DNA of 64,000 nt, taken from assembly GCA_002633005.1 (NCBI GenBank), contig NMRA01000105.1:1-64000 (forward strand), given 5' to 3'. Under the pieces are notes generated by a model. It saw nothing but the letters and a program-made list of their open reading frames with translations, made no database searches and was not told the origin of the DNA. The position numbers and the translations under genes are program-made. Source of the DNA: Phoronis australis. Its lineage: Eukaryota > Animalia > Phoronida. The first letter of the stretch is position 1. Each line of letters begins with the position of its first letter. Shown here in pieces: positions 6,790 through 60,037 of this stretch.

Positions 6790-6995
6790 TGTGTTGTAGC
6801 AAGTTTTAACAGTAATCTATTGTGGTTAACAGTATCAAAAGCTTTCTTCAGGTCCAGGAAGATAGCAACAGTAAGTTTACCATTTTCCATATTGTCAAGT
6901 AAGTAGTCAGTTATATCAAGGAGAGAAGTAGCTGTTGAGTTCGCGGGGCGAAAACCCGATTGTTCATCACATAAAAGATTGTTTGTAAAGATTTC
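6790..6995 (-). mobile_element. Short CR1/L2-group LINE RT fragment
   Basis: Translates to NNLLCDEQSGFRPANSTATSLLDITDYLLDNMENGKLTVAIFLDLKKAFDTVNHNRLLLKL. The rest of ORF 6678-7130 is unrelated sequence. Confidence 0.85.
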
Positions 6996-8970
6996 AGCGG
7001 GTTTTTTTTTGTCATAGGAGTTCAGTTTACCTCGTGAACCGTTATAGGTACCTCTGAAATGAGCAAAAATACACCTTAATACGAATGCCCCATCTCCCAT
7101 ATTCCCCCGGTACCCGTCAAAAGTCTGCAAGCATGCATGCAGAAATGGCCTATAACATTCTGTTTTGATAAATAAATTCGTTGGTTTTTGATTTACTTGT
7201 TGATGTATCTACAATAATCGATAGATTCACAGATGATTTTTGACATTTAGAAGCTAATCTTGTAAGAATTTGTGATGTTTCAGTGAATTTAATTGCAGCC
7301 TAAAGTTGAAAAAAACTTCATAATCTGATCCCCGACGATTTTTGCATATCTTTCTATCTCTCAAAGACATTGATGAAATTTGGACTCTCAAACCTTAGAT
7401 GGAAAAATCATTTTAAAAATGCTTAAATAAATTTAATTGAACTCATTGCTTGGAAATGTTGTCTGTGCACTTCCTTGGTGTTTTTAGTTTCCAGTAGTAT
7501 TGAGAAATGAATTTTTGTTCTTCAAAACTGAATTGATTGCTTGCACGTCATGACTGACGTACCCACGTTAAAAAATTGATGTTACTATGCAGTAGGCCCG
7601 CAAAGATCTCAGTGATCCACGGGAACTGAATTTGAATTCCAGGCGTTCAGGAAGTGTGTACATTTTGGGACACACTATCCTTTTCCCCAGCCACCAGAAA
7701 CAGGACTACCGGTCACGCTTCAACTAAGCAGTCCCAAGGGACTTCGGGACCTCATCTTTTCAAAAAAACTCCGTCAAAGAATGACCATAGTAAAATAAAG
7801 TTTTCTCAAAACTGGATCACAATAAAACGAATCTTGATCTGAGAGCGGCAGGGGACGAACAGCCTGTCTCAAGTGAATCACAGCTGAGCTGGCCAGCAAC
7901 TAGCTTTAGCCCATCTGGAATTTCGTATTTTTAAACTGTTAGATCTCAGCCGTAGTTACTTGAAGAAGTTCCTCGCTACCGGTCAGTGTACTGGTCCTAG
8001 GCCCATTCTTACTCTCTGTGTTGGTTCACGGTTACTCAGCTCGATCTTGATGGCTTCATCTCCGGGATTGTCTCAGAAGCGCATTCAGGATTTTGAGTTG
8101 GGGGGGCAGGGCATAGTATTAGCCAGGGGTTTACCTGTCAGAAATTCGCACCCCCGAACTGCCAAATGGAATCTGGGAGAATTTTAGGAGGGCCATAGCC
8201 CCTTGGCCACCCCCTATGTCCGCCACTACGCATAGTGCCCCCCCCCCACATAAGGCGGACGTGGGATATTCGGTAGGCTACAAATATGGTGGCATCGGGT
8301 GCACGGGGGGAGGGGTGGGGGCGGTGGCGGAGGTGGTGGAGAAGTCGAAATCGGTTTGTGCCCCTCAATAATTTTTGCCTTCCTACGGGCCTGCAACTGT
8401 GATCAGTAGGCAAGCAGCTTCAAATGCTGAAACAGTTAATATGAAGTGGGGTACTACTCCAACTTTGGGTAATCTGTTGACCTACAGACAGTGCACAGTA
8501 GCACGAATGGTTATCACCGATTCTTTGTAGGCGATAAAGATGTTCACAAACATGTGCTGTCAATGAGGCCAGTTGAGTGTCCCTGATTTTGTAGCTTGAA
8601 CGTGCTGCGTGACTTTCTGGAACACAGGAATATGCTTGGAACCCGTTTAAAATAAATAGAATACTTTAAATTCCTTTTATGCAAACACGATAATATTACA
8701 TACAAAACTCTTCAATCAAAAATACGCATTACAGACAAAATTGTTTTCATGTTGACGTGCATAATACCTGTGACAAATACATATACAACGAGCATTGAAA
8801 AGTGAACAAGGATCGAGATTGATTGTCAGTAGGTGAATCTTGTATCTATAAGAAAATCAAGTAAACGGAAAATCTATTATTCTCTGTTTCCACATTTTGA
8901 CAATGATAATTTATTTGTCAGCAGATTCAAACAAGGTCACTCATCGCATTCAAGTATTTTATGTACTATA

Positions 8971-13902: not shown

Positions 13903-14164
13903 GTGTTGCAGCCCAAACTGATGCCTGCGCCAAACTGATTAGACACACTTGAATTGGCACGGGTTGATGAGCCGAGCTGAAGCCTGTGCCAAGCACATTG
14001 ACCTGCATATATGAGAATTCATCTGCCATCAATTTCGGATCTGATAAGCCAGTAATTTAGGAACTTACAGTAGCTTCAGTTTGGCGCAGGCATGAGTTTG
14101 GTGAATTACCAACCTGAAGTGCGCCAAATCAGTTTGGCGCAGGCATCAGTCTGGGCTGCGACAC
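13903..14164. mobile_element. MITE with ~38-bp terminal inverted repeats
   Basis: GTGTTGCAGCCCAAACTGATGCCTGCGCCAAACTGATT...AATCAGTTTGGCGCAGGCATCAGTCTGGGCTGCGACAC, with internal copies of the TGCGCCAAACTGA motif. Confidence 0.75.
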
Positions 14165-15278
14165 TTACAAATATGTTGGAAATGTTACGTTGTTGGTTAC
14201 AGAGTGAGTATACTAGTAGCATTCTCATCTGAGGACTGACTTTGAGTGTGGGTGGATAGTGGACTGTCACAACACTGAAGGGGAAATCTACTTAAATGAA
14301 CATAAACTGTTCTTATTCAAAATTTTGTTAGTTGTGAATAATTATGTCACAGTAAAGTAATAACTTCATTGAAAATTATAAGAAATAGTGTTCGGAACTA
14401 CTTATTGAAAAATATGTCTGTGTTAACTTTTATGACTCATCATATTTGCACTATAGTCAATGAATGGTGATAAAATTATTTGAGTTACAAGAGGGTTGAA
14501 ATTTGAGCAGTGGTCAAGTTTTAGAGTTTGGAAATCAAAATTAGAATGCGGTGACTCACCATGTGAAAACACTCTTAATAATTAAATAAAGTTAAGGCTA
14601 GAGGTTGGTTGTTAATTTCATGAATTAGTTGATGAGTATAATGCCAGATAGCTAGCCTAGATATAGTGCAACAGGCTCCATCATTAGTATTTTTCCAAGT
14701 CATTTGTTGTGGCTTTGTTGTGTGTTGCAAGATTCAAAAATTACAACATGGCACTGTTTGTTTTGCCGTAATTCGTTCCTATTCCTACATAATACGCTAC
14801 TTTCCTCCTGAATGTGGGAGAATGAGAGAGAAATTGCTGGCAAAACACAAGTTTGTGTGGTAAACTATTGCATTGGTGGAAAAACATCACACGAGTACAT
14901 TTCATTGTGTTGTAGTTGTTCATTCGGAAACAAAGTCACTCACAAATATTTATAATCTTGCACCGTGGCTTCTACTAATAGATTGACCAGTCACCACGAG
15001 CCAGGCCATGTGTACGCTCAGTCCTTGCATACACAATCATTGAGTTGTATGAAACCTAACCTATCTACTAAATAAAGTAGGCTTGTTGTAGTAGAGATGG
15101 CAAGTGTCATGTCGGTATACTGAGGTAGTCCAGGAGATTCAACTCTCCTAACTTTTGCCACTTCTATGTGAGAGAATATATAGTGGGGGCCTTGATAACC
15201 TGAAGGGAAAAGTGGCTGTGCCTTTGGAGAGGGAAATTTTTTGGGATGAGCGGAAATTTCTACCCCCTCCCATCACCA

Positions 15279-15404
15279 TCAATACTAGGTGCACCCTCAA
15301 TACTAGGTGCACCCTCAATACTAGGTGCACCCTCAATACTAGGTGCACCCTCAATACTAAGTGCACCCTCAATACTAGGTGCACCCTCAATACTAGGTGC
15401 ACCC
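15279..15404. repeat. Minisatellite, 7 x 18 bp (TCAATACTAGGTGCACCC)
   Basis: Seven contiguous units with one G>A variant. This explains the repetitive ORFs at 15148-15448. Confidence 0.95.
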
Positions 15405-16799
15405 CATCCCTGTTGCAAGCCCTCATAGGATCTGCTTCAAGTAGCTAAAACTAACTTTTTGTGCTCTTTCAAATTGTCACTTGTGTGAGCTACGAGTGGT
15501 TTGAACGTCGAGGGGAATTTTTAATCATGTAAAGGGAATTTTTGTACCTCATGTAGGGAATTTCATGTGATTTTTCAATATTTTTGGGAGGGGAATGGGG
15601 CCGATGTTCAGCCCCAAAATTGAAGGATTGAGGCGTGAGGGCCCTGTATTGAGACAGAAGTTGTAACTGGAAAGTCACCAGTTAGAAAAAACGTGGTCAA
15701 TATGACAATATGCATGATACGCAGGTGCTGTGGACTGAGGTTTTAATTTTAAAAAGTTGATTTTGATGAGTTTTTCCAATTTGAACAAGTGTTAATTGTA
15801 AGTGAATTATGCCACCATTGTATTGTTAGTCTCCAATATGACATAAAAATTGTACAATAATGGCAATTCAATGACTGCAACTGTGTGATGTCTTTGTTAT
15901 TCAGCGTATTATTGTTAATGTAACCGGGCCCAGCACAAGCCTGCGTTTCATTGACGCACAAAACTCACGAAAACACAATATCACACAAGGCTTTGGAGAT
16001 ATCGCCGTGCATTAGAAGTGAAGCACGTGATCACTTCATGTTTACCATACGAAATTCTTGTATCTATGAAATGCAACCCTTATGTGCAAATGAGGAACTC
16101 GAAATTCACTAGGTTTCGCAAGTGAAGCAAGGGACCTTACCATAGAAATATCCATATTCAGGCAAATCACGTAGGTCCCTTATCCCACCAATGCCCTTAT
16201 GGTGATAGATTACTTTCTACTCTCAATCTATTCAAACGTCCAAAAGAAGGACTTATGTTCCCAGAGCGCCACCTCATGAATATGGGCTCTCATTAAAATT
16301 ATCTCTGTGGCGTATATAGCTATTGACACTTCATGTTGGTATTCTTAAATTTAGAGGTTAAACAATCGACTCGACATTCTCCCCAGCCTTTCTGAGTGTG
16401 TTGGGTCACAACGTTACAAATTTTGAGGTTTCACACTCAAATTTGACCACTACATTCAACTTTTGAGCACCCATGCTCAATGTATGATTGCATGTCATAC
16501 CAATTGTACTTTTAAGTGGTCTCAACCTGTGAAATGTTGGGATAGCAATGTCAGATTTGTCAGTCCAGTTCTCACTGCAGTCTTAATGTTACAATTTTTT
16601 CTTTGAAAATATTACCTTAACTATAATCTGCTTATTCACCAAGAAACGAACAACGGTAAAACGTCGTTAGTCTTCTCTTTGTGCCATTGTTCCCACCATA
16701 ATCAGTGTTAATCCTGGTGAGAGCAGTGCCACTGCTTCTTTTGCTGCATTTTGTAGCTCATATGTTTGTGAATTTGGCATTTTTCGTAATTTTTTTCAG

Positions 16800-19700
16800 T
16801 TGTCCAGACGATTTTTGCACCAATCCTTCACCCATTTTGTGAGACGACTTTCCAGGATGCACCTGAATTTAGACAACATTTTGTCAGCACCCAAAGATGG
16901 GGCAGTGGCGGCCATGTTGAATAAGACGTATATAAATGGCCAATGGGTGCATGCTGCTGACAATAAAACATTTGAAGGTAGGGTTCAGACACTTCGAGTC
17001 TTGTGGCAAATGATCCCATCACCTATGTTGGAACTAACTGGTTATTAGTCTGGTGGTACAGTTTCATCAAATTTCCTTCCTGCTATTTTTCAGATGTACA
17101 TAAATACTGTATAAAGCTTTCCAGATTGTATTATGGACCCATCATGTGACGCTGTTGAGGGCCTTGGAATAGTTGTTTGTTCTTCTATCAGATTTGAATT
17201 AATGAAGTGGAGATCCGACATTAAGGAAATCGTAGCGTGTGACAAATGAGATTTGGTGACAATTCAGACAATATTTTGTGATGTCCCTGTCATTGAAGGG
17301 CTTGACATAGTGATCTACAGGTCGCATTTGAAACCTGCTATGTGATTTGAGATTTTGGCCAATGTTAGCGACTTGGGCATTCCAACTCTTGTGAGCCGAG
17401 TCGCATCATCCAAAAATGCCCAACAGCATTTTAAATTTTTTTTGGTCAAGGTTATGCGACTCGAGATGGCTGTATGTGGGAGCTGCGTAAAATTTCAGAG
17501 TTGCGTGCTGGGCTTTTGGCCAGGTGGCAATAACAATTAAAACCTGGTAATTCTCCTACTATTAAGGGCTGTATTGATAGACCAGATTTTGACAGCACGT
17601 GTCCACCATCCTCAGGATGCAGGATGTTGTTGGTCATTCAAAGTAGCTTGTGGCGTCATGAGATTTACTTTGGTTCAAATCGTATGTTATTTCTAGTCAC
17701 CAACCCGGCCACTGGCGGCGTGATAGGTACGTTACCTGACATGAGAGGACAGGATACACAACAGGCCATTGAAGATGCTCACAAAGCCTTTCAGTCATGG
17801 AAGAATACCACAGCCAAGGTATGACATTTGTGGACAGGTGGATAGTTAGCCTTTGTGGTTGCCTGGTAAGGTTAGTGGTCAACTTTAAAATCACACTGTA
17901 GATCTGCCTGGGTTAAATAATTTGTTTGATTAACCTGTACTCATAATGTGTCTCCATTGACTTCAAAAGCCAAGATAAAACAAAATGGATAAGTCATCCG
18001 TAATGGAAATTCAGTGAGTTGTTTTAAAAACTGTTCTGAAGCCTTCGATGCAAAAAAATTAAATTCAATTTTTTTTAACTTTCCTATAGCTTTCAATGTT
18101 GTGGAGCACACTAACCATAGTGGAGGATGACTTTAATGCTGTGATTGGTTGTTCCAATTCTACGTAGTATGTATCGACCAATTATTGCTTGTGACTTGAG
18201 ATCAGCTAATTAACATATCGCCAGATAGTGTTTGCCGGTGTTCCAATCTGACAGTTGATGAACTGGTTGGGGTTTTCTTTGGTGTTTTTAATATGAAGTT
18301 GTTGGTTTTTTAAAAGCAGTGCAGTCCTGTGTCTCGTGAACCGGGCAAGAAAACTGTGCCAGGTGTTTATGTTTTCATGTTAACATTCATTTGGAAGTTA
18401 ATGGACATCTTAAGCTGACTGTTTGTGACAATTCTTAGCACCAACTGAGTGTGTCTCCACCCCGTTGTGTTCATTCTGTTGTGTTCATGGTCCTTTGGTC
18501 AATGTCCTTGTGTTACGCCTTTCATTTGTAATTGTATTTTCAGGAGCGAGCATCTATTATCCGCAAGTGGTATAACCTGGTTGTTCAAAATCAGCAAGAG
18601 CTTGGCCAGCTGTTGACTGCTGAAAATGTAAGTTGGCTTCTGCTGAAGTCATACAGATGTTTTGTCGAGAATCTCTGTGGACTATCTGAATAACTTGATT
18701 ACTGAGTTTAAGCAGGTTGAAATGACTGATGTGAATGACAGAAATCGTACGCAGGTCGTGTTATTTTTGCGTTAAAAGTGACACTACTTGTAAGTTTTAC
18801 GGCAATTACTGAAGATCATAATATTGGCGAGAATTGAGGTAAAATACCAAAGCTTTGAAATTTTTATGAGGTATATCGGAAGACTGTTGAATCAGCAGTA
18901 CCTAGGTGGCAGTTTTTAATTAGAGATTCAATGGTTCAGGTTATTCTTTCTCTAAGTGTATCTCTGAGGAACTGAAGTACAGGTGCTGCCACTTGTTAAG
19001 AGGTATAACCACAGAAGGGACTATCTGAACCTGTAGTCACTCACTACTCTACAGTCCTGAGATATTTTGTTGAACGACTGGAAACGAGGCACTGCCCCCT
19101 TTGTCTGGAAGATGTCAAGAGGCAGTCATCCAACCAGTGGGGCAGATCATGCATCAGTTGTCCAGAGCCAACTTGTAGCTGTCCCCTCTAGATGTCTGGG
19201 CGTCACTTTTTTGGCAAAGTATCCATGGACTGTATCTGGGTATAGCACTGAGGCCGTTCTTGTACCAAGAGAAAAAATGCATTTGATGTGTGACTGGGGC
19301 ACTTTTGTACCAAGGGGCAGTGTACAAAATGCATTGGTGTGTGACACCTTGGCGGGTCTTGTTCCAAGGGGTCATGTACAAAGTGCTTTGGTGTGTGACG
19401 GTTGCTCTTTTACCAAGGGGTTGTGTACTAAGTACATTGGTGTGTGACACCTTTTCCGCTCTTGTATCAAGGGGTCATGTACAAAGTACATTGGTGTGTG
19501 ACAAAGCCGTTATGAATTCATATGAAATACACTTAGTGATGGTATAAACTATTAGACATGTTTCAGGGCAAGCCTCAAGTTGAAGGCATGGGTGAAGTTG
19601 GGTATGCTGCAGGTTTCCTTGACTGGTTTTCTGAGGAAGCTCGACGTACATATGGGGAGACAATACCCACCTTTGCAGCCAATAAAAGACTGATGACAAT

Positions 19701-22700
19701 AAAGCAACCTGTTGGTGTCGTTGGTATGATCACACCTGTAAGTTGAAGGGGTAATATGAAACCTGCGTTTTCTCTCAAAAACTCGATGTTTGATGTAGGC
19801 CCCTTGCTGTTATAAAACTGGTCTTATCCTCCTACCGTACTCGGATTAGAAGCAATTACTAGGCTTTAGAAGAACTGAAATGCCATGTACTGTTTCAGAC
19901 CAGGCCTAAGAAGCTGCTCATTCCAGGGCTTTGCTATTCAAAACTAATAGGGGTAATAAGGCAATCTTCTCACCCAATACAATAAACCCGTTGTTAAGGT
20001 GTGCTTAGTTACACAGTCCAACTGGGACAGTTGTATGACTAAGAGCAGGGTTCACAAAGAACTACTTTCATTGACCTTGTATGTCAATTTCAAAAAGCTT
20101 ATTGTGTGTGAGTGACACCCATGATTTACAACCATCTGCAGAATTCTAAGCCACTTTGCGGACTGGCGGCCCCCTCCATGGCCAAAATGCTTGTCACAGC
20201 AGGTTTATTTCAGTCATTAAGGCTGTTTGGCCGTCATAGGAATTACAAATGAGTTTTTTAAAAGAACACAATGATGTTATTTTAAAAGAAGAATACGTCT
20301 GAAAACATTTCATTTTTTAAATCCAAAATGTGGTTTGTAGTGGGTTTTATTTCATCAGAAGGTTCACCTAAAACCACCGAGCATCACCTGCCCTTTTCCA
20401 TTTGATTGGCGTATTGCTTGTGGTGCATTGGTGGTCCAACATTATTTTAATACGTTTTAAAAAACGTATTAAATTTTGTCTTCAGCAACACTTTCATTTC
20501 TTTCTTTCCCCAGGAATCTCTCATTGATAATAATCGCAATAACTTGCAAATTGAGAAAAGGTTATAGTTGTAAGGTCATGAATTCAGATTTATCAAATTA
20601 AAAATATTTATGTTAAAAATTTTAAACGAAATGGTATAATTGCCAGTTTATTTATCAAACAATTTGTGCAGACTGGGTAGCATTTTACAAAAAACAACAA
20701 GCCACTGCAGATAGTGCCCAAAGATATGAGTTAATATTTAGCAATCATTTGACCTGTGTCTCTACTGTCTGACTGAACTTTATGTGATGGAATGTGGTAT
20801 CAACATTTTATGTCATCGCTAGTTACCGACACTGGTGTGTGAAATTTCAGTGGAATTTTCCCAGTGCCATGGTTACGCGTAAGGCTGGTCCTGCCCTGGC
20901 AGCTGGGTGCACAGTGGTGATAAAGCCGGCCGAGGACACGCCTTACTCTGCATTAGCGCTGTGTGAGGTAAGCAGTGTCTCAACTTGAACTTGGATTCAG
21001 GGCTTGGAATTTTCCGCGGAAACGTGGATTTCCGCTTTTTTCAAATGTGCTGTCCGCTTTTTTTATAATATTTCCGCGTAAAAAAAAATCGGATTTGATA
21101 TAAAATTTCCGCGGCAAATTCCTTTCTTACCGCGGCGTTGCAGACGACGTTCACCTCGAAAAGCGGAAGTTGCTCTTTATGTTTCGGAGGAACGTAAATT
21201 GTCAACATTGCCAGGGCACCTGGGACAGCGTGGTGGGATTTTCAATGGTGTCTCGCGTTATTGTTAAGCGCGGCGACAAATACTACCGCTCTGCAGCCAA
21301 AAATGTGTGGGGTTGGGAGTGGACGGGTGAGCTAAAAGGACGCAGACGCATGCTGCTGATGGTGGTAACGTTTTTTTTTTTTTTAGTCCCGATTTTTGTC
21401 GAGGAAAGGTTCACATTGACCATTTCAAGGCTGGTTAGCGGGCATGATTTCGGCAGTAAAAGTTTCCACGTTTTTTGTCATTGGTCATTCCAAGCCCTGT
21501 GGATTAGACACTCATTTGTAAACCATGTATTACAGAACTAAATAAGGGACATTTATCTTGAATTCGTTCTAGTTAATGCCGAAATATGAGCATAGTTTAG
21601 AGTTTGAGTTCCAATTCAGAGATTGTTATGTAAGCCTAGGGGTCTATCTTCATGCCTAATTCTCACATTTGCCACCTCGTGTCACACAACAATGGAGGAT
21701 GACGTCCTAGCATCTGTTTTGGTGACTTGTTCAGAAGTGTTATCAGGGCATAAACCACTTGGCGCATATGGGCTCATCAGTGTGCCATTCGTTTTGGTCT
21801 TGGCTAACCAAAACCCATGGGGTTAATAAAAACAAGTGTCTTCTCAACTGGGAACATAAATCCTTTGTTCAGCTGGGTTTACTTAAACAGGTCAATGTGG
21901 GGAGTTGTGTGGCTAAGAGGAGGATTTACAAAGTATAACATTCACTGCTCTTCCATGTCAATTTCAAAAGGCCTACTGTGTATGGGCGTATCCCATTATT
22001 TACAACCTTCTGCAAAATTCTGAGCCACCATACGGGCCAATTACCCCTTCTAAGCCCGAAATGTATGCAGTGTAGAGGTAAAAAAATATAAAAATAATTG
22101 CAGGCGGTCTGATACACGTTGTACCAAACGTGCGCAGGCCTCGCATGTGGGCCCATTGCACTGATCACATGGAAATATTTTTATGCTTTATTAATATATG
22201 GTTAAAAACGATCTGAGGAGCTAGAAACCTGGCTCAAGGGTTTAGCAATGTGACCTGGTGGGACTTGAACCCACGACCTGGAGTAAAGAAAGCGGGCACT
22301 TATCAACCAGGCCACACTGTAGAGGTAGTTATTGTCACCTTTGTTGAAAAGAGAATTATCAAGGACTATAGCCTAATGCTTGCTTGAGTTTAAACAGAAT
22401 ATCCAGTAATCTTACTGCAATTTGTGACTGATATTTTATTCCCTCTTTCTATGTCATCAAAAGTATATTCATCTCCCCTGTATATTGCAGCTGGCTGAAA
22501 AAGTATATTCATCTCCCCTGTATATTGCAGCTGGCTGAACATGCAGGTGTGCCTCCTGGTGTTATCAATGTAGTCACATGTTCCCGGCAGCACGCAGCTG
22601 AAGTGGGAAAGGTGATGTGTGAGCACCCCCTGGTGGCCAAGATCTCCTTCACAGGCTCAACAGATGTCGGGAAGGTAGGTGATACCAGTTAGCGATTGTG

Positions 22701-22891
22701 ACATTCTACCGTAAATTCTGTGAGACAATCATGTTGCGCTGAAAGACTTGTTTTTTACTTTCTTGATTGACCCCTGTTTTACTAAATGATCAGATTCCAC
22801 TACCTGTTGCTGGCAGAAATTATTAATGGGAATTCAGATTAAGACTGAAAAATGTTATTCAAGGTTGGCTAATGTCACTTATGCCCACACT

Positions 22892-22933
<42 letters not shown>

Positions 22934-25900
22934 TTAATAATAATAATAATTCAGTTTTGGAATTAATTATGGTAATTTTTCACTTATTTAGCGCATGATT
23001 ATAAAAGTGAACATCATTAACAGATGGCGCTGCATGCAAATTAGTAGCATCCTTAGTGAGTCATCAGTGGACCAACATAAAGCTGCATTTACAAATTACA
23101 CCCCTCTCAACGGGATCACCTGCAGACAGCACATTACCACACCCTTTGTGTTTCCAATGCAATAAACCTAATCTGGTGGAAATAATTACAAGTGTGATGC
23201 TTTCCAACTAAGATTTACACGCTCAGTTAACTCTAGCATGTCTTTATGAATAGGCTTGACTTGCTGCTTGGCTGGGGTAAGGCACCTCGCCTAGCCTAGT
23301 CTTGATGTAGCAAGATCTGTAAACGCTACATATTCTCATGGCATGAGGAAATTGTTTGCACATTGTGTACTAGAGTCTCATCAGTTCCTGTTGACTTTTG
23401 TGTTCAGTATTATTCGTATACTGTTAAACGGGAAACTTGATATTACGTTACTTCTCTGGCTGAATAATAGACTACTTGAGATGTTGTCTCTGTAAAGCTA
23501 ATATTGTTTGATATTTGCTGTGTTATGCTAGTTGATGAAAGATATGACCAGATGTATCCAGTGGTCTTTATGTCTTTCACACACAAATCTCTAGGGTTAA
23601 TGACAATATATTTTCCGTTTTAGCAACTGCTGCGTCAGAGTGCTGACACTGTCAAAAAAGTGTCGCTGGAGTTGGGTGGGTTGGCCCCATTCATTGTCTT
23701 TGATTCGGCTAACCTGGAGAATGCTGTGGAAGGTGCAATGGCCAGCAAGTTCAGGTGTAGTGGACAGGTAAAGTAGCCAGTAGGTGGACATTGATGAGCC
23801 AATGTTTTTTTAATGTATATTATGAAATATTCAGTACAATAAATATACATACCCAGAAAGTGCCTAGAGGCATTGTATCTGGGTTAAATACATACAAAGA
23901 AATCTATATTGTCAGCGTAATGCTGTGTCTTATACTGAGGCAACGCAACTACACATGGTCAGACAACAAAAATAAACAATTAACTTTGGTCATATTTCCA
24001 GATAGGTTGAGATAAAAATGGATACTGGACAATACAATAGCGTCACTGGGCTTAGCAGCCAGGATATTTTATTGAGTTGTGTCTGTCAGCAACGGCATGC
24101 CATCCACCCGTCAGAACCCTTTCAGTGTTGCCAACATCGCAACGTCTGGATTGCAACACACAGCTCAACAACAACTCTGGTAGCATGTAGCAGCAAAGCT
24201 TCGCTTTCGTTTTCTCTCCTGCATTCTCATTATCCTAAACATTCACGTTGTTAACTTGCTTATTGTCCCTTGTAGACTTGTGTCTGTGCCAACCGGTTCT
24301 ACATACAAGAGGGTATCCATGACCAGTTCGTCGCTGCTCTAGTCCAGAAGGTGGCAGCCCTGAAATGTGGGGACGGATCACAGGTGGGCATAACACAGGG
24401 TCCGCTGATCAACGCCAGAGCTGTGGACAAGGTGGAGGGTATCGTTAACGATGCCGTGCAGAAGGGTGCTAAGCTGGTACTTGGAGGCAAGCGACATGCC
24501 ATAGGTGACCAGTATTATGAACCAACAGTACTGACGGATGTGACTGTGGACATGAGATGTATCAAGGAAGAGATATTCGGGCCAGTGATTGCCATTATGA
24601 AGTGAGTGAACAAGTGGGTGTTGGTGCGGCTGTTACCCATAAAGCATTGCACCTTGCCATGAAGTTCACAAACATTTTAAGTCTGGTCTGCACGACACCT
24701 ATTGGGCACATCACCGGACCTAATGATGTGGCCAATAGGTGGCGTGCAGACCAGACTTAAAATGTTTGTGATCTGTATCTCCACACAGGTTTAAGATTTA
24801 CATATTTATGTTGCCATGAAGTATTGAGTTGTATTTGATAAGCAGTTGGATAGTACCTGTGTTAGCCCTGAAACATCCAAGTGCGACTGTTGTCATAGCA
24901 TTTATATTAACACTTTGCTATATTTTGCTTATGAACTTTCTCAGCACAGTTTAACATTATCAATATATACAAATAATTATGTAAATCGTGAACCGTCATG
25001 GAAATATAGATTGTAAGTCTGGTCTGCAGACCAAAATTAAAAATGCTTAAGAAGTATCAAAATTTATTTAAGAAAGAATAAGACAGTATTTATATTCCAC
25101 TTAATATAAACTGAATGTTTAACATTATATATACTTAAGAAAGATTGCAATTATACCAATTTTATGTGCCTCAGACTGAGTGGTATTCTGTGTATTCGTG
25201 AGCACTGTTCATTACAAATTCCTTTTGTTATTTTGTTATGATGGCTAGTTTCCCCATCCAAGCCCAAACTGGTTTGAAGGTTAAAACAAAGGTTATTTTC
25301 TAGGTTCAAAACTGAAGAAGAGGCTCTAGCTATGGCCAATGACTGCAGATATGGCTTGATGGGTGAGTGACTAGTGTTGTGGTTTTATGATTGTAATTGT
25401 AGATCAGAGTTCACTGTATGAAAAACTTCGTGAGCAATCAAGTACAGGTAAAAACTGGCTGTTGGATGATGATCTCGGATAGTTGGAGTTTGCCCATTGA
25501 ATTCCTGCTGCTTGGTCACCTATGTAATCCTTTACGATACCTCATTATGGCATAAAACGATGTGCCTGTTGACTGTTCAAAGCACAGCCAGCTGGCTCTC
25601 TGTTGTGTTGGCAGGCAATGAGGTAACTGAAACTTGTGCATATGTTGACGAAGTTAATTGGTTTTGGCTTGAATTTTCGTCTGTGTTATAGAAATAATTG
25701 CAGGCGGTCTGGTACAAGACATTTGTAGGCTGCTCATGTGGGCCCATTGCATTATACTAGATCCATCCTGGCTTGCTAAAGTGTATCAAAAAAGCTCAGT
25801 TCCAAATCACTCTTAAAACAATAAATTGAAAGTTGTCTTTAATCGATGTTGCTCATTTCCTTAGTCAAGCTGGCTCATGGTTGACAATGCATAGTTTTTC

Positions 25901-26610
25901 ACTATTTGACTTAGAGTTGAGGTCATTTATTGAGGTCCTAGATAACCTAGGCTATAATCCGGCATTCCGTCCAAGAAGCGGACTTTTGATTTAGACCACT
26001 TACTGCTTTGCTATAAAATTCACCAGATGGCAGTACACATCGAGTTGTACTGCCATCTGGTGACACAAAGTAGCAAACTTTTGATTTAGACCACTTACCG
26101 CCATGCAATTGGTCTCGCCTTGTTGAGAAGTGATTTCTGGGTAAACAACTAACAGTTCATTTACCCTTTTGACCCGATTCGTAAAATTACCCGCCATGAC
26201 AAGCCAGCTGGTAGAACCTGATCTCAACCAATCAGGAACTGTCAATTTTTTGAAGCCCTGAAATCATCTCCAATTTGACTTGGGAACAATTTGAGACCAA
26301 CTTCTCAACGATACGTGGTCTATATCAAAAGTGGAATTTGTAATGGAAGGGGGATTCATGGTATCTTTACCTATTCATATTTCATTGTATTCTCTTTCTA
26401 GGTTATGCATTCACGGGCGACATTGCCCAGTCTTTCAGAGTCTCTGAGAAAATGGAGGTTGGCATGGTGGCCATTAATGATGGGGTGATATCCTGTCACG
26501 AGGCGCCCTTTGGTGGGGTCAAGGAGTCTGGCCTCGGTCGAGAGGGGTCTAGATATGGCATCGACGAGTACCTGGAGATTAAATACATTGGATATGGCAA
26601 CATCAGTTAA
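16800..26610 (+). CDS. ALDH5A1: Succinate-semialdehyde dehydrogenase (ALDH5A1/SSADH), 10 coding exons; start exon uncertain
   Basis: GT-AG exons: 16800-16977, 17697-17818, 18544-18627, 19567-19737, 20851-20967, 22531-22674, 23624-23767, 24276-24601, 25304-25362, 26402-26610. They join in frame to 517 aa plus TAA. Motifs: [53 protein letters not shown] (catalytic Glu), GQTCVC (catalytic Cys), [36 protein letters not shown] at 26655. Confidence 0.96.
19258..19503. repeat. Degenerate tandem repeat, ~5 x ~50 bp, in ALDH5A1 intron
   Basis: Recurring CTTGTACCAAGGGG..TGTACAAA.TGCATTGGTGTGTGAC units. Confidence 0.85.
20998..21499. mobile_element. hAT-like MITE with 13-bp perfect TIR and 6-bp TSD
   Basis: CAGGGCTTGGAAT...ATTCCAAGCCCTG, flanked by TGGATT on both sides, with subterminal TTCCGC repeats. 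Confidence 0.8.
22093..22319 (-). mobile_element. tRNA-derived SINE
   Basis: The minus-strand head CAGTGTGGCCTGGTTG...GGGTTCAAGTCCCACC carries Pol III A and B boxes. A full homologous copy is at 53995-54211 and a 3' fragment at 25693-25752. Confidence 0.8.
22460..22539 (+). repeat. 2 x 40-bp tandem duplication containing the splice acceptor of ALDH5A1 exon 22531
   Basis: AAAGTATATTCATCTCCCCTGTATATTGCAGCTGGCTGAA occurs twice, back to back. Confidence 0.95.
22893..22950. repeat. (TAA)n microsatellite
   Basis: About 19 TAA units with one interruption. Confidence 0.95.
24666..24771. repeat. Near-perfect hairpin (48-bp arms, 10-nt loop), probably a palindromic mini-MITE
   Basis: TCACAAACATTTTAAGTCTGGTCTGCACG...CGTGCAGACCAGACTTAAAATGTTTGTGA with two mismatches. 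A collapsed relative lies at ~25014-25039. Confidence 0.85.
25983..26101. repeat. 71-bp palindromic insert flanked by 24-bp direct repeats
   Basis: Direct repeat CTTTTGATTTAGACCACTTAC(T/C)GC at 25983-26006 and 26078-26101. Insert TTTGCTA...TCACCAGATGGCAGTACA-8nt-TGTACTGCCATCTGGTGA...TAGCAAA. Confidence 0.85.
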
Positions 26611-28552
26611 ATAAATTTAAATAACTCTGTACTTAACTTTAATTAAAACCATTTAATAAAATGGCATAATCGATTTTGATCATCGCGTATAACAAGTGGT
26701 ATAGCTCCAAAAGCCTTTGTATATGCAATTTGCTTAGGCTGGGCTAAGTGCTGGCAAGGAGTCCAACTGCGCTCTACAAAAACACTTTTCAACATGAAGT
26801 TATGGTTGGGCCTCCTTCATATCATCCTGGATCCACCAGTGATTTAGTACAAATTAAATATTTGATATAATTATTTTGTGTGTGAGTATTTTTGACCCGG
26901 TGACTTTTAAAGTGTATTTTTCAGTTTCACCATTCAGTGTGTGTGTTAGGACCATGCTACTCTCAAGAGTGTCTTTTTCTGGGTAGAGTTCTGTGACGTT
27001 AGGAGGTCACTAAAATCTAGCCAAAATCACATGTTCTCATTTAGAATACACGGCAATATCTCATGTAATCTCGCAAAGTCTTGGCTTTCAATGAGGTTCT
27101 AATGTTACTGAACAGAGGCCCTGGTATAGTGCGCTCTTACCTTTTGTGATCTGATGACTGACATAAAGACTAATACCTGAGAAATATGTAGGTCTTTCAC
27201 AAACAACTTGTACATTTTTCCATTCAGCTGTTGTTGTCTGGTATGACACATTGCATGCTCGTAGTAATCTGGTTTGTGATTATGAATTACTGAATGTTGA
27301 AATTGTAGGACTATGAAATGCTTGACTTGCAAAATACTGGGTATATAAAATACTGGATTATGAAGTAATTACGGTCTACGTAGGTATTTAGGCATATGTA
27401 GCTAGGCGCAATGTCTAAAAACAACCTTCTAGGCTGACATTTTGATTCCTGTTGTACTAAAATTTGTAAAGTACATTCTTGAGCGATGTTCTTGCAGGAA
27501 ATGTGAATAATTTTATGTTCAAAATTCATGATGTATTTGACTTTCCATTTTAAGTGTTTCCACTTACTGTCAAAGTCTGTGATTCAGAAAATTCAATAAT
27601 TCAACCATTAATCGTTAAATGTGACAATAGTCATGAAAATTAAACATTGGTGGTGTAATGATTTGAAATACAAGATTCATTCAATATAATGATTTGTTGT
27701 GATATGTTTTAAAATTGGTGCATTGTAGACTGCAAGGTCACCAATCAGTCCGTCTTTGGGACTGCTACTGCCCTCGAATTTAATTGGCCTTGACCTTGTT
27801 CTCGTTTTGTTCCTATTACCTTAATTCCCCCTTTACTTGGGCGTACTTCCAGGACAACTTTATCTGTAACAATTTGTTCTACCTTCTGGTGTGGAATAAG
27901 TTGATTTCAATTTCCTTCGGGTATCAAATTGTTCCAGAACAACTGACGTTCACACCAATTCTGTCCTCTCATAAGTTGCACTTGCAGCACCAGGGACTTT
28001 GTTAGGGTATGAAACAGAATATACCTTTCTGAAGGCACTTATTATGAAAATTACACCTCAGTGCAGTCAATTGTTTATTTTTGTCATTGGAAGATAGAGC
28101 AGTGTAGATCTACATGAAAAGAAGAAATAATTGCCTAACTACATTTATGTCTTCATAATCTTCCGGGACATCCAGTCGCGTCTCCTGGGAGTCCAGTCTA
28201 AAATGTAGAAAATGGTTATGTAATACTGTAGATAATGTTTTTCCTGGTTTTTCAATGTTAACCAGATAACAAAACAGTACTTTATAAATTTTGTAAGGCA
28301 CAGTCTCTGTCGGCTTTGAGTGAAGAGATGCATTTCTGAAAGAAAAATTACGTAGTGGCTACGGCCATGGCTATTTTTTTGCATTCGTTCTGTAAAACCT
28401 CGTATGTAAACCGCTATGGCCTTATATTTGGGATCGTTTAAATGTTCCCAGCGGTTTACCGATTAGTGGATTGAAAATGCACTGACAGCCTTGGGAAAAT
28501 AATTGGTCAACGATACTAAAACAAGCTTATAAGTTGTCGTGAATTATCTTAC

Positions 28553-28628
28553 CGCCTTCATCACTTGGCTTCTTGTTCTTTCAGGTATTGCTCCAAAGCC
28601 TTTGCCATTGCCGCGTTAACCTTTTGAT
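28553..28628 (-). CDS. Peptide gene exon 5: end of propiece and stop codons (TGA TGA)
   Basis: Acceptor GTGTTTACAG|, reading (D)QKVNAAMAKALEQYLKEQEAK*, with donor GCG|GTAAGA 8 nt after the first stop. Confidence 0.7.
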
Positions 28629-31419
28629 CTGTAAACACACATTTCTCATCAACTTCTCGCCGTACATAAACAATTTTATGCAGATGGTAGCCCTACAACA
28701 AGCCTGGTGACGAGCACTCGATGAATGTTAGCCGAACAGTGTTTTTTTATAAATTTTATTACACTGTAAATGCGTGTTTTCAGGCGCACGGGCCTATTTT
28801 CTTAGATTGGCCATTCCGCATTTGGTGCATGTGTCTATACGCGAATCTGAAGTTTGCTCCTGTTTCTATTTACTCACCCCGTCCTTCTTAGTCAGCTCAG
28901 TTATTTAGCCCGGCGGGGTGTGCAGTAGAGATCCTTGGGAGTGGGCTTGCACTGCGCAGACTTGAAGCCAATGCCAACACTGGTGGACATATGAGCATGA
29001 AACTGCGACTACCTTTAGTTCTACAGGATGTCCCGAAAATGCTCTCACGTTTTAAATGATAATGAATAACGGCATTGTTGGTTGACTGACGAACAAGATC
29101 GCTGGTTCAAATCCATTATAAAGCGTGGGTCAAAAAAGGAATTGAGTCTATAAACCGTTGTGAATTTATTGTTTATGAACTTGGAAGGTGGTTTATTGTC
29201 TGCAGTTCCTTGGCATTCATTTTTTGAGTTTCCGATGGTCGATTGCACGATAAATTTTCGTTCTCCAAAACGAAGTTTGCTGGCATGCCGTTCCCGTCCC
29301 GTGTTTAAGCGCAAGCGCGTGCGTACGCACCTACTTTCATTGTATGCGCGCCGACTGGGATCCACAATACTAAAATTGAACTCCTCAATAAATAGCGCTG
29401 TTGTTGTCATTAGAAGTGAAAGTATATTTTTGGGACACTCTGTATGCCGCATCAGCGCCGTTTTAAAATTCTCGGCAATTTAAAAGTTACATGGCCAACC
29501 CCAAAAATCTCTTGAGCGTTTTGCTCAGCGAGTCCGGCTGGTGCTTTCGATGTTTGTTGGTTCGGACCAAATACATTGTAAGACCGATTGAGTTAAATGG
29601 CTTACATTCGTTTTTTGCTGCTAAATACCTAGGAAATACTGATTTATATGAATATTTACCAAATCCTTCCGCATTCCGTAGGTCTCTCAGTACGGTTTCC
29701 TTAACGTCATCGTCAGCGTTCTCCATGGCGTCTTGTTGTTCCGCATCGGTCATCTCAGAGAGCTAAATAGTGAGGTGCAATTAGTCAACTCATGTTGCCT
29801 TCAGTTCGTCTATTGGTTATTCGTCAACAAAACGAACTTAGTCACTTGGCCACGTGATGGGAAGCTCGGCTTGTGAATGTGAAAAGGGTGGACTCGAACT
29901 GATCAAGAACGGGCGAAAATGGCGGGGATGGTGGAATAGACGTTTTATACTTCACTGCGCCGAACACCATGTAAGACACATGTGTTGCCGAGAATATATG
30001 TGGCTAATAAGGTAAACGGGAGAACATCCCCTAGTACTTACAGGCAAAAGCAATTGCGCATTTGAATTGCGAGTGTTCATTTGTTCAAGATTTTTGGCAT
30101 CGAAATCAGTATAATAAACCAGTGTAATTCTTAGGATCGCATTGTTGGAAAAAGTTCCAAAACGCTAAACCCCAATCCCAAATATCCCTGCGCGACGTTT
30201 GTGAGTCGATTGCAACTAAAGAAATAATTAACTATTGTAAACCGATGAGAACACTCTTTTCTGAGACCAGCCCATTTTGGAACCTAAAACTCTTGCGTCG
30301 CAGCTATTCGCTCTGCTGGCTTGGCTAAATCGGCCTTGATACACGGTAAAATATCTTAAACTTATTTAATTGGTAGTCCCCGGCCATGATCTCAGCGAAT
30401 GTCTGACAGACAACACAGGTTGATTTGTAATAAAATTGCAAAAAATGCTACGGATTTTATTGTTTAAAGCTCTGGTCAAAGCTGTAACAATTAATTAAGA
30501 AGTCTTTCCCGTTCAACAGTAATCGGGAAACGTTGTTCACCGTAAAAGCGATATTGTCCCTTATGCATTCCTGGTACTGGAATTATGGGTTGATAATGAA
30601 TCTAATTTAAAAATGTATTTAGCAACACAACTAATTGAAAGTCGGCCGTTTTTACTTACATCTCTCTTTCCATACGGATAAGGTAAAGGCCTGAAATAGA
30701 GACAAGTCGTGTGACGACTGTGGCGTAACAGGTAGCAACCCGGAATTTCCCCTAATGTACGCCTATGGTTCTATATAACGAAAATTTCATAGTGTAGACC
30801 CCTTGTCTAACCTAAGTTGTCGCAATTATAATTTCTTAAGGTGTTAGGGTATCCCAAAGGAACAATGTCATCGAATATCGAATGTACATGTTGAGTGTTT
30901 CTTGAAATATTGCTCATCTGTCACAGCGACGTGTAGTCCGTCAGGGATACGATCACCAACTTGAATGGGACGATAACTTATACATCGTATGGACGATCAC
31001 TCAAATGTCATAGAGACCATCACGCATCGTATTTACGTTAGACGTAAATCAGTGAGATTTACTTTTGACATTATTCCTAGATTCTAACTCCCTGCTTTAG
31101 GGCAAGTCGGACATAAATTCAGGGCGTTATTCAAAACATGTGAGTTATTTAGGTTTGGTCATTATGTTTTGATTCTTACGAAACACTTTATGAACGTTTT
31201 TTAAGGAAGAAAAATAATATCGAATGTTTGCTCATTGAAAATGCATGTATGCACCGGATAGTTAATGTGAACTAAACAACATGACTTGACGATAAAAATT
31301 AGTACTTACGGGTATCTTGGCGCCCGCCACCCCCATCTGCGCCGACGCCAAGCGTCGCTTTCCATCACTGCACTCAAGATTACGGCCAACACAAGGAAGG
31401 CGATAATTGACTTGTTCAT
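28561..31419 (-). CDS. Novel 103-aa secreted prepropeptide; predicted amidated Trp/Arg/Pro-rich cationic (antimicrobial-type) peptide precursor
   Basis: Coding exons on the - strand: 31419-31310, 30690-30660, 29762-29660, 28628-28561. All junctions are GT-AG with matching phases 2/0/1. Product: MNKSIIAFLVLAVILSAVMESDA|WRRRRWGWRAPRYPPLPYPY|GKR|DLSEMTDAEQQDAMENADDDVKETVLRDLRNAEGFDQKVNAAMAKALEQYLKEQEAK*. A non-coding exon 1 lies at ~33015-32965 and a last exon starts at 28197, with AATAAA at 28079-28074. Confidence 0.8.
29024..29442. mobile_element. Tc1/mariner-type MITE in an intron of the peptide gene
   Basis: TA|CAGGATGTCCCGAAAAT...ATTTTTGGGACACTCTG|TA: TA target duplication and CAG.GTGTCCC-type TIRs. 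Confidence 0.85.
29660..29762 (-). CDS. Peptide gene exon 4: acidic propiece
   Basis: CTAAT branch-like site plus CACTATTTAG| acceptor. Reads LSEMTDAEQQDAMENADDDVKETVLRDLRNAEGF. Donor TTTG|GTAAAT. Confidence 0.75.
30660..30690 (-). CDS. Peptide gene exon 3 (31 bp): PLPYPY-GKR-D
   Basis: Acceptor TGTCTCTATTTCAG| and donor GAT|GTAAGT. Phase 2 in and phase 0 out, exactly as needed to bridge exons 2 and 4. Confidence 0.8.
30742..30751 (-). promoter_or_regulatory. Consensus NF-kB site (GGGAAATTCC) in intron 2 of the peptide gene
   Basis: + strand GGAATTTCCC equals GGGAAATTCC on the - strand, matching GGGRNWYYCC. Function is untested. Confidence 0.35.
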
Positions 31420-31426
31420 CTTTTAG
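31310..31426 (-). CDS. Peptide gene exon 2: signal peptide and N-terminal part of the mature peptide
   Basis: Acceptor TTCTCGTGTTACAG|, start context AAAAGATG at 31419, reading MNKSIIAFLVLAVILSAVMESDAWRRRRWGWRAPRY(P), donor CC|GTAAGT. Confidence 0.85.
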
Positions 31427-32964
31427 CTGTAACACGAGAATCAAAAGTTGATCATGACAATAGAGGCGCTGCAGTTGCACTGAAGGCTTTACGTACAGTA
31501 TCAAAACCGTTGACACCCATGTCCCGTTCAAAATAGTTTGGTAATACGTGCCCATGCCATATACTAATATCGCAATTCGTTTGTTTTCGTAGTGTCAGGT
31601 CTTTGGCCGTATTAATTGCACTGGGTGAAAATGTGACGGTTTCGGGTAGTCCATGGTTGAATAAATCAGATTACACTTTTGTGAAACCCTGTTCTGATAC
31701 CATGTTTTGGATTCCTTCCAATTTCTTGACTGGATTCATCCAATAAACTCACATTTGATAAAAAGATGGGATGTAACGACAGTTAGTATTTATTAGATAT
31801 AAAAATTGGTCATTGACAGCGCCCAGTTACGTCGGTTAGGGAGCAATGCTGTCCTACTCTAATAAAGACAAATTATTTCTCATCAAAGAGTTAAGAGATT
31901 TATTTATACCCAATTAATCCAAAAATGTAGATTTTATGAAGTGTGTCTGAATGTAGCACCTTCTCATGAATGGTGCAAGATGCACAGTGACTAACAAATC
32001 TTTGCTTAACATTGGAATCTGATTCTGCTGCTGTTGCTATATGTAGTTTTTGCTTAACAGTCTGAGGATTTGATACATTTTAACGTTATATGTTGCTAAA
32101 TCTTAGTTGCGTTGACGTAGCCTTTAGTAAACGTAATACACCTACAGAGTGTTTCTTTTGTGTCTTGGCAACCCTCATGTCTACTAACAGAAAATTAATA
32201 CCTCCATACCGTGTTCTGCCGTGTTCAAAACGAAAGTATTTCATGACCATAATGTTGAAAAGTTCATTTTCCTGCAGAATTGTTATCAGCTGGATGACAG
32301 ATGGCCTTCACCCAGGCTGTACAAGCCCTTCGTTTCATTGGTTCCCCTTGTTGGATGCGCGCGTGTAAGGGCAAGGACATGACGATAATACATCGCGTTA
32401 TTTTTTCACGTACTGCTACTGATTGTTAAAAAACTTCTTCAAATTACAAACATAATAATCAGTTTTGACCTCAGGTGTTTTGCTCCTGCGGGGATTTGGC
32501 CACTTACAAATGGCGGGTGAGCAACTATTTTGTTGACAAAATATTGCAGGTGGAGACGACGGTTAAAACGATTTGTTTTTTAAAATAGTTTTAAGTTGTA
32601 AGATAAGGATGTAAAAAGGTTTGACAGAGAAAATAAGGTGTTTGAACACTGGGCTCTTTAAAATCACAAGTTGTGAACTAAATAAAGTACATGAATAGTT
32701 GTTGAGATATTATTTTAATTGTTTATTTCATTTTGTTGCTGTTTGCTGTGACCGAAAATCAAAATCATGATGGCTCTAGAATGTTGTTGGGAGGGGGGAC
32801 AGACCAAAGTTCTCAGAGCACTAACACATGCACAACCCCCCCCCCCCAAGACGGCGTTTTTTACTTCTAATCGGCGACCTCCCCGCCTCCCATGAAAGAA
32901 CACTACTCGAAGGTAAACCAGCGCATGAAAAGAAATGAAAACTCCAATCTACAAAAATACTTAC

Positions 32965-33061
32965 CACGTCTTCAAGGAGTCTTAAGAGCGACCAAAAATC
33001 TTGATGAGATGATGATTGAGCTGTAGCCCACGTGCTATTTTATAGAGTTGAGAGCGATTGG
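32965..33061 (-). promoter_or_regulatory. Core promoter and non-coding exon 1 of the peptide gene
   Basis: On the - strand: CCAAT (33061-33057), TATAAAA (33044-33038), CACGTG, an Inr-like TCAATCATC about 30 nt downstream, then donor GTG|GTAAGT at 32964. Confidence 0.7.
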
Positions 33062-34799
33062 TCGTGTCTGCACCAGAGCCCTCGGGACACGAACTTATCG
33101 GAGTCGTGACTAACATCTCACAGGGGGTGGAAACGTGATCGCGCTTCTAACTTCCAGCAACGCCCCCTAAACCCTAACAAACACAAATCTCGTAGTACAC
33201 ATTCCAGGATCTCGCTCCTGAACTCATACCCGGTAACCGTACACTCTGTACCCAGGATCCAAACTTCACTCAGCGAACCTCCGAGTTCCCATGATAAATA
33301 TGGTCCTCGAGACAGAAGCTTGGTTCCGGGATACCTGTGGAGTTTGGTCGCCGGGTATGGACCATTTCCGCCGCGAGTGTGGAGTGCGGGGGGAGGGGGC
33401 TTGAAATTTATACCGTGGGTGTTGGTGTTCAGTGGTCTGGGCTGCGGTTTAGAAGATCGTAGCTGGAATTGTTTCCACCACCTGCCCGGGATAGTTGTGC
33501 AAAAGGCAAAAAATGCCCAAAATCTAAAATCGTGATGAGAAAATATCAAAAAAGTCGATTCAATGGTACATTGTTATGAAATCGTGGGAACATGCAGAGT
33601 AGTTGTATAAAAATTAATTGTGTTTGCACAAAGTCTAGGGTCGCCAGGGGGAAGTGCGGTAACAAGACATGAAGCTAAATTGTAAGGTAATCGTGAGAAC
33701 ATCCAGGGTAGTTATATTGAAAAAAAATAGTGTTTGCAAACAATTCATGATCGGCATGAGGCGAGTTGCATGACGTATTTGTTGACTACAACAGATTTTC
33801 AGATTGCATTATTTATTTATTTTTAGGAAACGTTTGTTGTATTCACACTACAGAATTACAGCGACATTACAGTGATAAGCATGCATGAATTAGATATAAG
33901 ATATGCCTTAATTAAAGCATGTTAATGAATGCATGGTGTAAATACATAACTGTACTTTATAACAAAACATTCACACCCCATTCTCTCTAGAATCTTATAC
34001 AGCCAAATGAATAATAATTGCATTGTCAAACAAAAAGCGCTTCTACAGGGATTCACCTACTTCTAAATTTATTCATAATTGAAAGTTCTTACGGTAAATT
34101 ACCTTTTCTACGTTATAATAGAAAAAAAATCATATATCGACTATTGCAAACAAGGGGTACTATAATTTAACCTAGCTTTCGGATTGCATTTTATCATTTG
34201 GTGGTTACATTTTCCAAGGTTTAAATTCGATTTCTTTAACAATAGGTCTAACCTTCGCAAAGAATAAACGTGGAAAGTTCCGTTCCTGTCGATTTTATTA
34301 TTACCCATTTTCTAACGGAGTCGGTCATATGAGCATTCATTCTACTAATATGTAGAAAGTCGGGATGTAACTTGAACCCATGATAATTTTGCCAGGAACC
34401 AAACCATTTTAAGTAATGTAACTCAACTTAATTCTATTTTATTATTGAAAAATGCTGCTTGAATTGTTTGGCAATTAGTTTCCATCGAAAGCGAGTACAT
34501 TCTTAAAGATTTTCATTTCACTTTTTCGTTACAAGTTACATAAAATAAATTTTAATGCCAACCAATTCGGACAAAGCTTTTGTTCCAAGTAATGCAGGGC
34601 TAATTTCAGCATCACGTGTTCTTTAAAAAGTTGTATCTCATGTTTGTACTTAATTTTGGGATTACTGGGGGGGGGGGGGGGNGGGGGGCACAATACAAAA
34701 ATAGCAGGGCAAGATGAATCACACAGAATTTCACTATTTATAATTTTTTTTTCTTTAACACAGCCCCAGAAATCGCTTACGCATTGTGTCCGGTTTCTC

Positions 34800-41822: not shown

Positions 41823-60037
<18,215 letters not shown>

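Follow-up and report, generated by a model that had tools for sequence, protein, structure and literature searches.

What does a candidate gene of six small exons encode, and is it a gene at all? These questions are raised by the minus strand of a 64-kb stretch of Phoronis australis DNA (contig NMRA01000105.1; hereafter the window, to which all positions refer), where a short precursor, predicted to be secreted and with a Trp- and Arg-rich core, can be read between 28055 and 33061. We find that the candidate is a real, transcribed and spliced six-exon gene. By analogy with assayed peptides, the form encoded in the window (form A) probably yields an amidated, linear, cationic antibacterial host-defence peptide. 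The best explanation for the locus is that it is part of a small peptide family, changing fast and restricted to its lineage, in a lophotrochozoan-like animal, with a paralogue or a very divergent allele (form B). The family is apparently undescribed, although its architecture is of a known kind; what is unusual is the uncharged sister form.

The six-exon model had been proposed in an earlier note from the letters alone, and all its coordinates hold. Splicing the minus-strand exons 31426–31310, 30690–30660, 29762–29660 and 28628–28553 in silico gives an open reading frame (ORF) of 103 amino acids (a.a.), with the ATG at 31419 and the TGA at 28563–28561. All five introns (355–1538 nucleotides, nt) have GT..AG borders, and the coding introns are in phases 2, 0 and 1. 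The five donors rank between the 92nd and the 99.6th percentile among all minus-strand GT sites; four of the five acceptors are at least at the 82nd percentile, and that of exon 5 is weak (16th percentile). Exon 1 (32965–33017, 5′ end predicted) is non-coding and is seen in RNA depth. Exon 2 (31310–31426) contains 7 nt of 5′ untranslated region (UTR), the ATG, a predicted signal peptide of 23 a.a. (31419–31351) and residues 1–13 of the core (a Trp/Arg head), where the phase-2 intron follows. The 31-nt exon 3 (30660–30690) encodes the Pro/Tyr tail of the core, Gly-Lys-Arg (30671–30663) and Asp47, up to the phase-0 intron; exon 4 (29660–29762) encodes the acidic part of the propiece (net charge −8 over 34 a.a.); and exon 5 (28553–28628) encodes the C-terminal 22 a.a. 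(net charge 0) and the stop codon, and begins the 3′ UTR. The non-coding exon 6 (28055–28197, 3′ end approximate) is placed by RNA depth and by the junction 28197/28553. The promoter and polyadenylation motifs claimed earlier are likewise in place, each unique on the minus strand in the 200–400 nt examined: a putative CCAAT box (33057–33061; the sole minus-strand CCAAT within 33000–33200), a TATA box (TATAAAA, 33038–33044; one of 14 such minus-strand motifs in the window) and a presumed polyadenylation signal (AATAAA, 28074–28079; the sole one on this strand within 27800–28200). An initiator-like A at 33017, 27 nt downstream of the TATA box, is a candidate start site, and RNA read ends pile up at 32996 in the exon 1 region.

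Three raw-read RNA runs (X1, X2 and X3; about 18–19% of each was sampled) and a contig set (X4) were aligned to 27800–33300; the runs were chosen by species label, and their source individual may differ from that of the window. In X3, 86 reads aligned, with depth confined to seven of 30 bins, those holding exons, and all reads have the same mate orientation, the one expected of minus-strand RNA in most stranded libraries. By identity to the window they separate into form A (26 reads, ≥99%) and form B (60 reads, 90–95%), with none between. When the predicted splice junctions were checked against the RNA, four of the five were found to be crossed exactly by window-form reads: 28197/28553 (one read in X1, five in X3), 28628/29660 (one in X1, seven in X3), 29762/30660 (eight in X3) and 30690/31310 (12 in X3). 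The fifth, 32965/31426, is crossed by 20 X3 reads, all of form B (they carry a 4-nt insertion in the 5′ UTR); this junction is not listed separately for the window's form because that form accounts for about 1/19 of the exon 1 reads. X1 has few reads, and X2 has 13, all partial and mostly off-exon. None of the 239 584 contigs of X4 aligned to 27800–33300, which is no proof of absence. Per million records there are 7.8 reads in X3, 0.94 in X1 and 1.15 in X2, figures that carry no housekeeping control and that for X2 come mostly from the partial, off-exon reads. Expression is uneven between samples, resembling that of the gill-biased myticalins of mussels. The X1 and X2 reads at 30376–30559 and around 27975 have loose ends on both sides and most likely come from a dispersed repeat transcribed elsewhere; those at 27975 and 30382–30416 were considered as exons, rejected for their loose ends and treated as repeats.

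The spliced ORF bears out every count made earlier for its parts, and with them the layout of signal, cationic core, Gly-Lys-Arg and acidic tail. The leader of form A is 23 a.a. long and ends S-D-A, which places Ser and Ala at positions −3 and −1; it has a basic n-region and a long hydrophobic stretch (7-residue Kyte–Doolittle means of 2.7–3.7 for windows starting at residues 4–13). The core has 20 a.a. (six Arg, three Trp, five Pro and three Tyr, no Asp, Glu or Cys), a charge of +6 and an isoelectric point (pI) of 11.7. G44-K45-R46 directly follows, and the remaining 57 a.a. form a tail with 16 Asp/Glu versus seven Lys/Arg (charge −9, pI 4.2), so that the precursor without its signal has a net charge of −1. 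Gly-Lys-Arg directs convertase cleavage, carboxypeptidase trimming and amidation by PAM.

On this layout, signal peptidase would cut after Ala23 (Ala17 is a possible alternative), a proprotein convertase would cut after Lys45-Arg46, a carboxypeptidase would remove the basic residues, and PAM would turn Gly44 into a C-terminal amide. Until then the acidic propiece would mask the core during storage: the charges of core (+6) and tail (−9) nearly cancel and therefore fit a masked storage state. Both amidation and charge-masking anionic prodomains are described for marine invertebrate peptides (PMC10608444). The released peptide would be extended rather than helical, its Pro/Tyr tail keeping it so; helical moments of the core are 0.24–0.37 in the sampled windows, with one at 0.69. 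Its Arg/Trp head would bind and perturb anionic bacterial membranes, and entry into bacteria, as for Pro-rich peptides, would be possible. For the amidated 20-mer the computed monoisotopic mass is 2727.47, and for its free acid 2728.45. Arg/Trp clusters suffice for antibacterial activity in synthetic 9-mers, and an amidated one starting W-R-R-R-R-W has a minimal inhibitory concentration of 1–8 µM on 16 strains (PMC7725003, Table 2); it shares the first six residues of core A but has five Trp, and serves as an analogy only.

Does the precursor belong to a known family? Searches were run exon by exon with queries of 21–40 residues, and are weak for that length. Exon 2 had no match at E ≤ 0.001 among 1.84 billion representatives, and exon 4 with six intron codons, compared with proteins of 71–2000 a.a., gave one candidate and none at E ≤ 10. 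The best ESM Atlas scores for exons 2 and 4 (0.80 and 0.81) are at chance level, and an MgtE_N match was rejected. Pfam returned DUF998 alone for exons 2, 4 and 5 (E 0.051, missing the 0.05 cut-off), and the PDB sequences gave one match to exon 2 at E 9.9. A match to a known non-immune family would have spoken against the earlier proposal; these exon-level searches gave no relative. When five core motifs were looked up exactly in the literature, Trp-Arg4-Trp alone matched, in three papers that include a synthetic-peptide study, and no description of the candidate family was found in the literature covered (subscription journals and antimicrobial peptide databases lay outside its scope).

The signal and propiece of form B are ∼91–93% identical to those of form A; the five listed differences in the 68 signal-coding nt amount to S4T, A12T and two silent codons. 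The core is replaced: 13 reads jump from 31352 to 29753 with 31 foreign letters between, and 20 loose ends carry the same letters. Read by hand, these letters complete Ala23, encode G-W-P-W-G-L-V and then K-R-D, rejoin at Met51 and stand in place of 82 nt around the core, with form B resuming 9 nt inside exon 4, at 29753, directly after an AG. Its core has seven residues, is uncharged, contains Trp-x-Trp, and keeps the K-R without the amidation Gly; in a hand codon alignment its residues 1–5 correspond to Arg28–Arg32 of form A, with both Arg read as Gly. Further along, the propiece has Q57E, M60L, a 3-nt deletion near 29729 and, where exon 4 ends, what looks like the loss of 6 nt. Variants at 29726–29735 are uneven (present in 13 of 26 reads at 29735 but in seven of 20 both at 29726 and at the deletion), possibly through alignment drop-off or a third form. 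The visible coding indels of form B (51, 3 and 6 nt) keep the frame and the 5′ UTR insertion is of 4 nt (hand reading), a contrast that points to a translated ORF. The form B core was not found as an alternative exon within the window (no match at ≤2 mismatches), nor did blastn and tblastn find a tandem or second copy of any exon in these 64 kb. Form B may come from a dispersed paralogue or from a very divergent allele, or it may be the transcript of a cryptic relative in a pooled sample.

In exon 5, form B has six listed nt changes in four codons, and all four replace residues (L93F, E94A, Q95R and Q100R), which moves the net charge of this segment from 0 to +3 (hand count) while that of the core goes from +6 to 0. 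Accordingly, what acts might be a C-terminal helix rather than the N-terminal core, in form B if not in both, and the propiece would then be a second functional module to which charge had moved from the core. We hold this to be improbable. There are 51 replacement versus 12 silent sites, and six changes with none silent have a chance of ∼0.28 (hand calculation), which is not significant; the segment is weakly amphipathic in form A (8% of 5000 shuffles reach its value) and has no dibasic site to free it; and that core-B and tail-B variants lie on one molecule is itself inferred from read shares.

Form B could also be a degenerating copy, and the locus either a gene for a secreted structural or matrix protein (of tube, cuticle, mucus or adhesive) or a decaying gene that makes no specific peptide; matrix proteins do have acidic tails and low-complexity stretches of Pro/Tyr/Arg. 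Both readings are very improbable for a product this small, with a clean G-K-R between oppositely charged blocks, and for a form B whose reading frame survives the three visible indels and whose expression exceeds that of form A.

The processing signals bear on another alternative, a lineage-specific neuropeptide, hormone or pheromone precursor whose ligand would be a short Trp-x-Trp peptide once the core had been cut at the Arg run. In neuropeptide precursors conservation is usually highest in the peptide itself, but here the core is the part least conserved between the forms, and form B loses the amide. The order of signal, single peptide, G-K-R and associated peptide is that of GnRH-type precursors, G-K-R is a standard neuropeptide amidation site, Arg25–Arg28 is a possible convertase site in front of the Trp-x-Trp found in both forms, and low expression would suit a neural transcript. 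A single-copy peptide right after the signal is known in spiralian pleurin (PMC8557429). On the other side, the core lacks the N-terminal Gln of GnRH and corazonin, and four of five core motifs have no occurrence in the nemertean, brachiopod and phoronid proneuropeptide supplement of that study (one file, exact match); the fifth occurs there 30 times, and the two passages shown are multi-copy pedal peptide 3. We consider a signalling role decidedly unlikely.

To keep the flanks and replace the core is typical of peptide families for defence or venom and not of neuropeptides, and the host-defence reading gains because the sister transcript shows exactly this contrast. A hypervariable core within conserved flanks also typifies toxin gene families, and the product could be an exocrine peptide, of venom or defensive mucus for instance, directed against animals instead of microbes. 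Expression uneven between samples would fit such a peptide, as would the grouping of the neighbouring kinase with proteins of a nemertean and an annelid, from lineages that include toxin-secreting species; and the short Trp/Pro/Gly core of form B recalls small bioactive peptides of skin or venom such as tryptophyllins and contryphans. A toxin is nevertheless unlikely: there is no cysteine scaffold, three exons have no Pfam match at E < 0.05 and exon 2 has no meaningful PDB match, and the composition of core A is like that of assayed antibacterial peptides.

Several observations weigh against an antibacterial form A peptide, the reading we prefer. The Arg25–Arg28 run and R32-x-x-R35 inside its core are possible convertase sites, and cutting at the Arg run may leave a 15-mer of charge +2. 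The earlier claim that G-K-R is a convertase and amidation signal is borne out as to the motif, but the same logic fits these internal sites, so that the 20-mer itself may be trimmed; Arg runs are, however, retained within the tested active Ciona peptides, which were synthetic (PMC7387483). Form B is the commoner form in X3 (60 versus 26 reads), with an uncharged core and no amidation Gly, and Trp-x-Trp, not charge, is what the two cores have in common. Expression is low (about eight reads per million at best). Myticalin cores are consistently strongly cationic (PMC12294457), which holds here for form A and not for form B, and myticalin genes are clustered, whereas the 64-kb window has no tandem copy. 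Since form B is abundant with an uncharged, non-amidated core, cationic killing cannot be the role of the whole family. The host-defence proposal is thus strengthened by the contrast between flanks and core in the sister transcript and weakened by the uncharged commoner form, and antibacterial activity is argued by analogy.

There is a small but real chance that a single signal/propiece chassis carries opposite cargoes in an undescribed lophotrochozoan family: a +6 amidated Trp/Arg/Pro antibiotic in one form, and in the other an uncharged, non-amidated Trp-x-Trp heptapeptide, with the charge moved to a C-terminal helix. Should forms A and B be allelic at this single non-clustered locus, a balanced polymorphism would be switching what the peptide does, and the intron inside the core would let head and tail modules come or go separately. 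Whatever their relationship, the forms are a natural pair for asking what core, amide and acidic tail each contribute. Linear, Cys-free defence peptides are lineage-restricted and escape homology searches and ORF callers; the form A precursor is split over exons of 31–143 nt, now backed by junction reads, and it supplies a 20-mer that is ready for synthesis. The importance is limited in that new cationic peptide families of such layout appear fairly regularly and no new mechanism is shown.

The window is animal DNA (∼36–42% GC). The candidate gene sits between a succinate-semialdehyde dehydrogenase (SSADH, ALDH5A1-like) gene on the plus strand (16920–26604; ∼10 exons by tblastn, the largest with a best identity of ∼64%) and a CDK16/17 (PCTAIRE-like) kinase gene on the minus strand (42764–60044; 10 coding segments). 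The SSADH gene converges on the 3′ end of the candidate, with ∼1.4 kb between its stop codon and the last candidate exon. In a tree of 16 kinases (that of the window, 13 named and two unnamed proteins, drawn from 120 matches listed of 952, with no mollusc, brachiopod, tunicate or arthropod), the kinase of the window forms a group (support 100/99) with one unnamed protein and those of Tubulanus and Owenia, and the hemichordate, brittle star and vertebrate kinases fall outside it; the source animal is therefore lophotrochozoan-like. Its best neighbour in the tree, at 82% identity, is the Owenia kinase; no mussel protein is among the 120 matches listed of 952. With best identities of 82% for the kinase and ∼64% for the largest SSADH exon, the matches listed include no closely related annotated proteome. 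A 33-nt unit occurs three times at 52171–52276 (minus strand) at the end of a kinase exon, repeating the last codons and the splice donor, and possibly provides alternative donors. Elsewhere in the window there are two LINE-type (long interspersed nuclear element) reverse transcriptase ORFs (RVT_1; 4656–6083 on the plus strand, E 8.7e-38, with an open frame of 475 a.a., and 6678–7208 on the minus strand, E 5.1e-09), a long inverted repeat at 63228–63684 (167-nt arms, 90% complementary and 36 nt apart, with further 46-nt arms outside), which is likely a foldback or MITE-like (miniature inverted-repeat transposable) element, shorter inverted arm pairs (24663–24774, 13903–14164, 50196–50506 and 1029–1443), and a tandem array of an 18-nt unit at 15256–15422 (∼7 copies).

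How does the precursor compare with peptide systems already described? Indolicidin, PR-39 and apidaecin have linear cores rich in Trp/Arg or Pro/Arg, and their precursors carry a cathelin domain ahead of the core or multi-copy repeats; the likeness to them is one of composition only, and the precursors differ. Precursors of the GnRH and corazonin type share the order of signal, one peptide, G-K-R and an associated peptide of similar length, but have an N-terminal Gln that is missing here, where core A is strongly cationic and the core is not conserved between the forms. Amphioxus BjAMP1 is likewise a secreted precursor of ∼100 a.a. with a dibasic site between anionic and cationic blocks, in the reverse order, with the cationic peptide at the C terminus behind the anionic region (PMC4683396).

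The earlier note had named tunicate peptides as the nearest analogues. Ci-MAM, Ci-PAP, the six-member Ciona family of PMC7387483, styelins and clavanins do have a signal, a cationic region and an anionic helical pro-region in the same order, and several of their cores have Trp beside Arg runs. The signals of the six-member family are also 23 a.a. long, start M-N-K-S and end in Ala, and six of 15 specified positions are identical to ours (hand count; short hydrophobic signals match easily). This likeness in sequence is most likely convergent, because the neighbouring kinase groups with lophotrochozoans (in a tree that includes no tunicate); a tunicate as source of the window, which the likeness had suggested, was rejected on the same tree. 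Their cores are amphipathic helices, whereas five of the 20 residues here are Pro. According to PMC7387483, the Ciona precursors have no basic processing motif at the core boundary, and styelins and clavanins are cut before Asp; cleavage there is before acidic residues, in contrast to the G-K-R here.

Mussel myticalins are nearer in layout, Lys-Arg site, Gly donor and core chemistry, and replace the tunicate peptides as the closest analogue. Like myticalins and modiocalins, form A has the tripartite precursor of a predicted signal (a hydrophobic leader), a cationic Cys-free core (+6), Lys-Arg and an anionic extension (−9; 57 a.a. here, 35–75 a.a. in theirs). Myticalins have a Lys-Arg site, often preceded by a Gly that can donate the amide, and their cores are of Pro/Arg/Tyr or Pro/Arg/Trp type (PMC5577615, PMC12294457); the candidate has G44-K45-R46 in form A and K-R without the Gly in form B. 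Group A myticalins are rich in Pro/Arg/Tyr, and one subtype of group D in Pro/Arg/Trp, a chemistry like that of core A. A non-coding exon 1 with an intron just before the ATG is shared as well, as is a hypervariable core in conserved flanks (judged here from two forms). Of seven synthesised myticalins four were strongly active, two moderately active and one inactive; the Pro/Arg/Tyr-rich ones act on several bacteria, and as A5 inhibited translation weakly (PMC5577615), a ribosome target should not be assumed. The combination of a Trp/Arg head with a Pro/Tyr tail, earlier taken as the mark of an unrecognised family, therefore stands in that no homologue is detectable at exon level, but its chemistry has already been seen in myticalins. 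Other features separate the two. The signal does not fit the consensus given in PMC5577615, being of a similar length class with different start and end motifs (by eye). Myticalin genes have three exons, with the whole core and the dibasic site in exon 2 and one phase-1 coding intron, as opposed to six exons here, coding introns in phases 2, 0 and 1, and a phase-2 intron that splits the core; and myticalins and modiocalins are reported as restricted to Mytilus and Modiolus. Because signal consensus and exon structure do not fit, the candidate, as judged from its sequence, is built like a myticalin but is not a member of that family, and the precursor layout of myticalins and Ciona peptides would thereby have arisen, apparently independently, once more.

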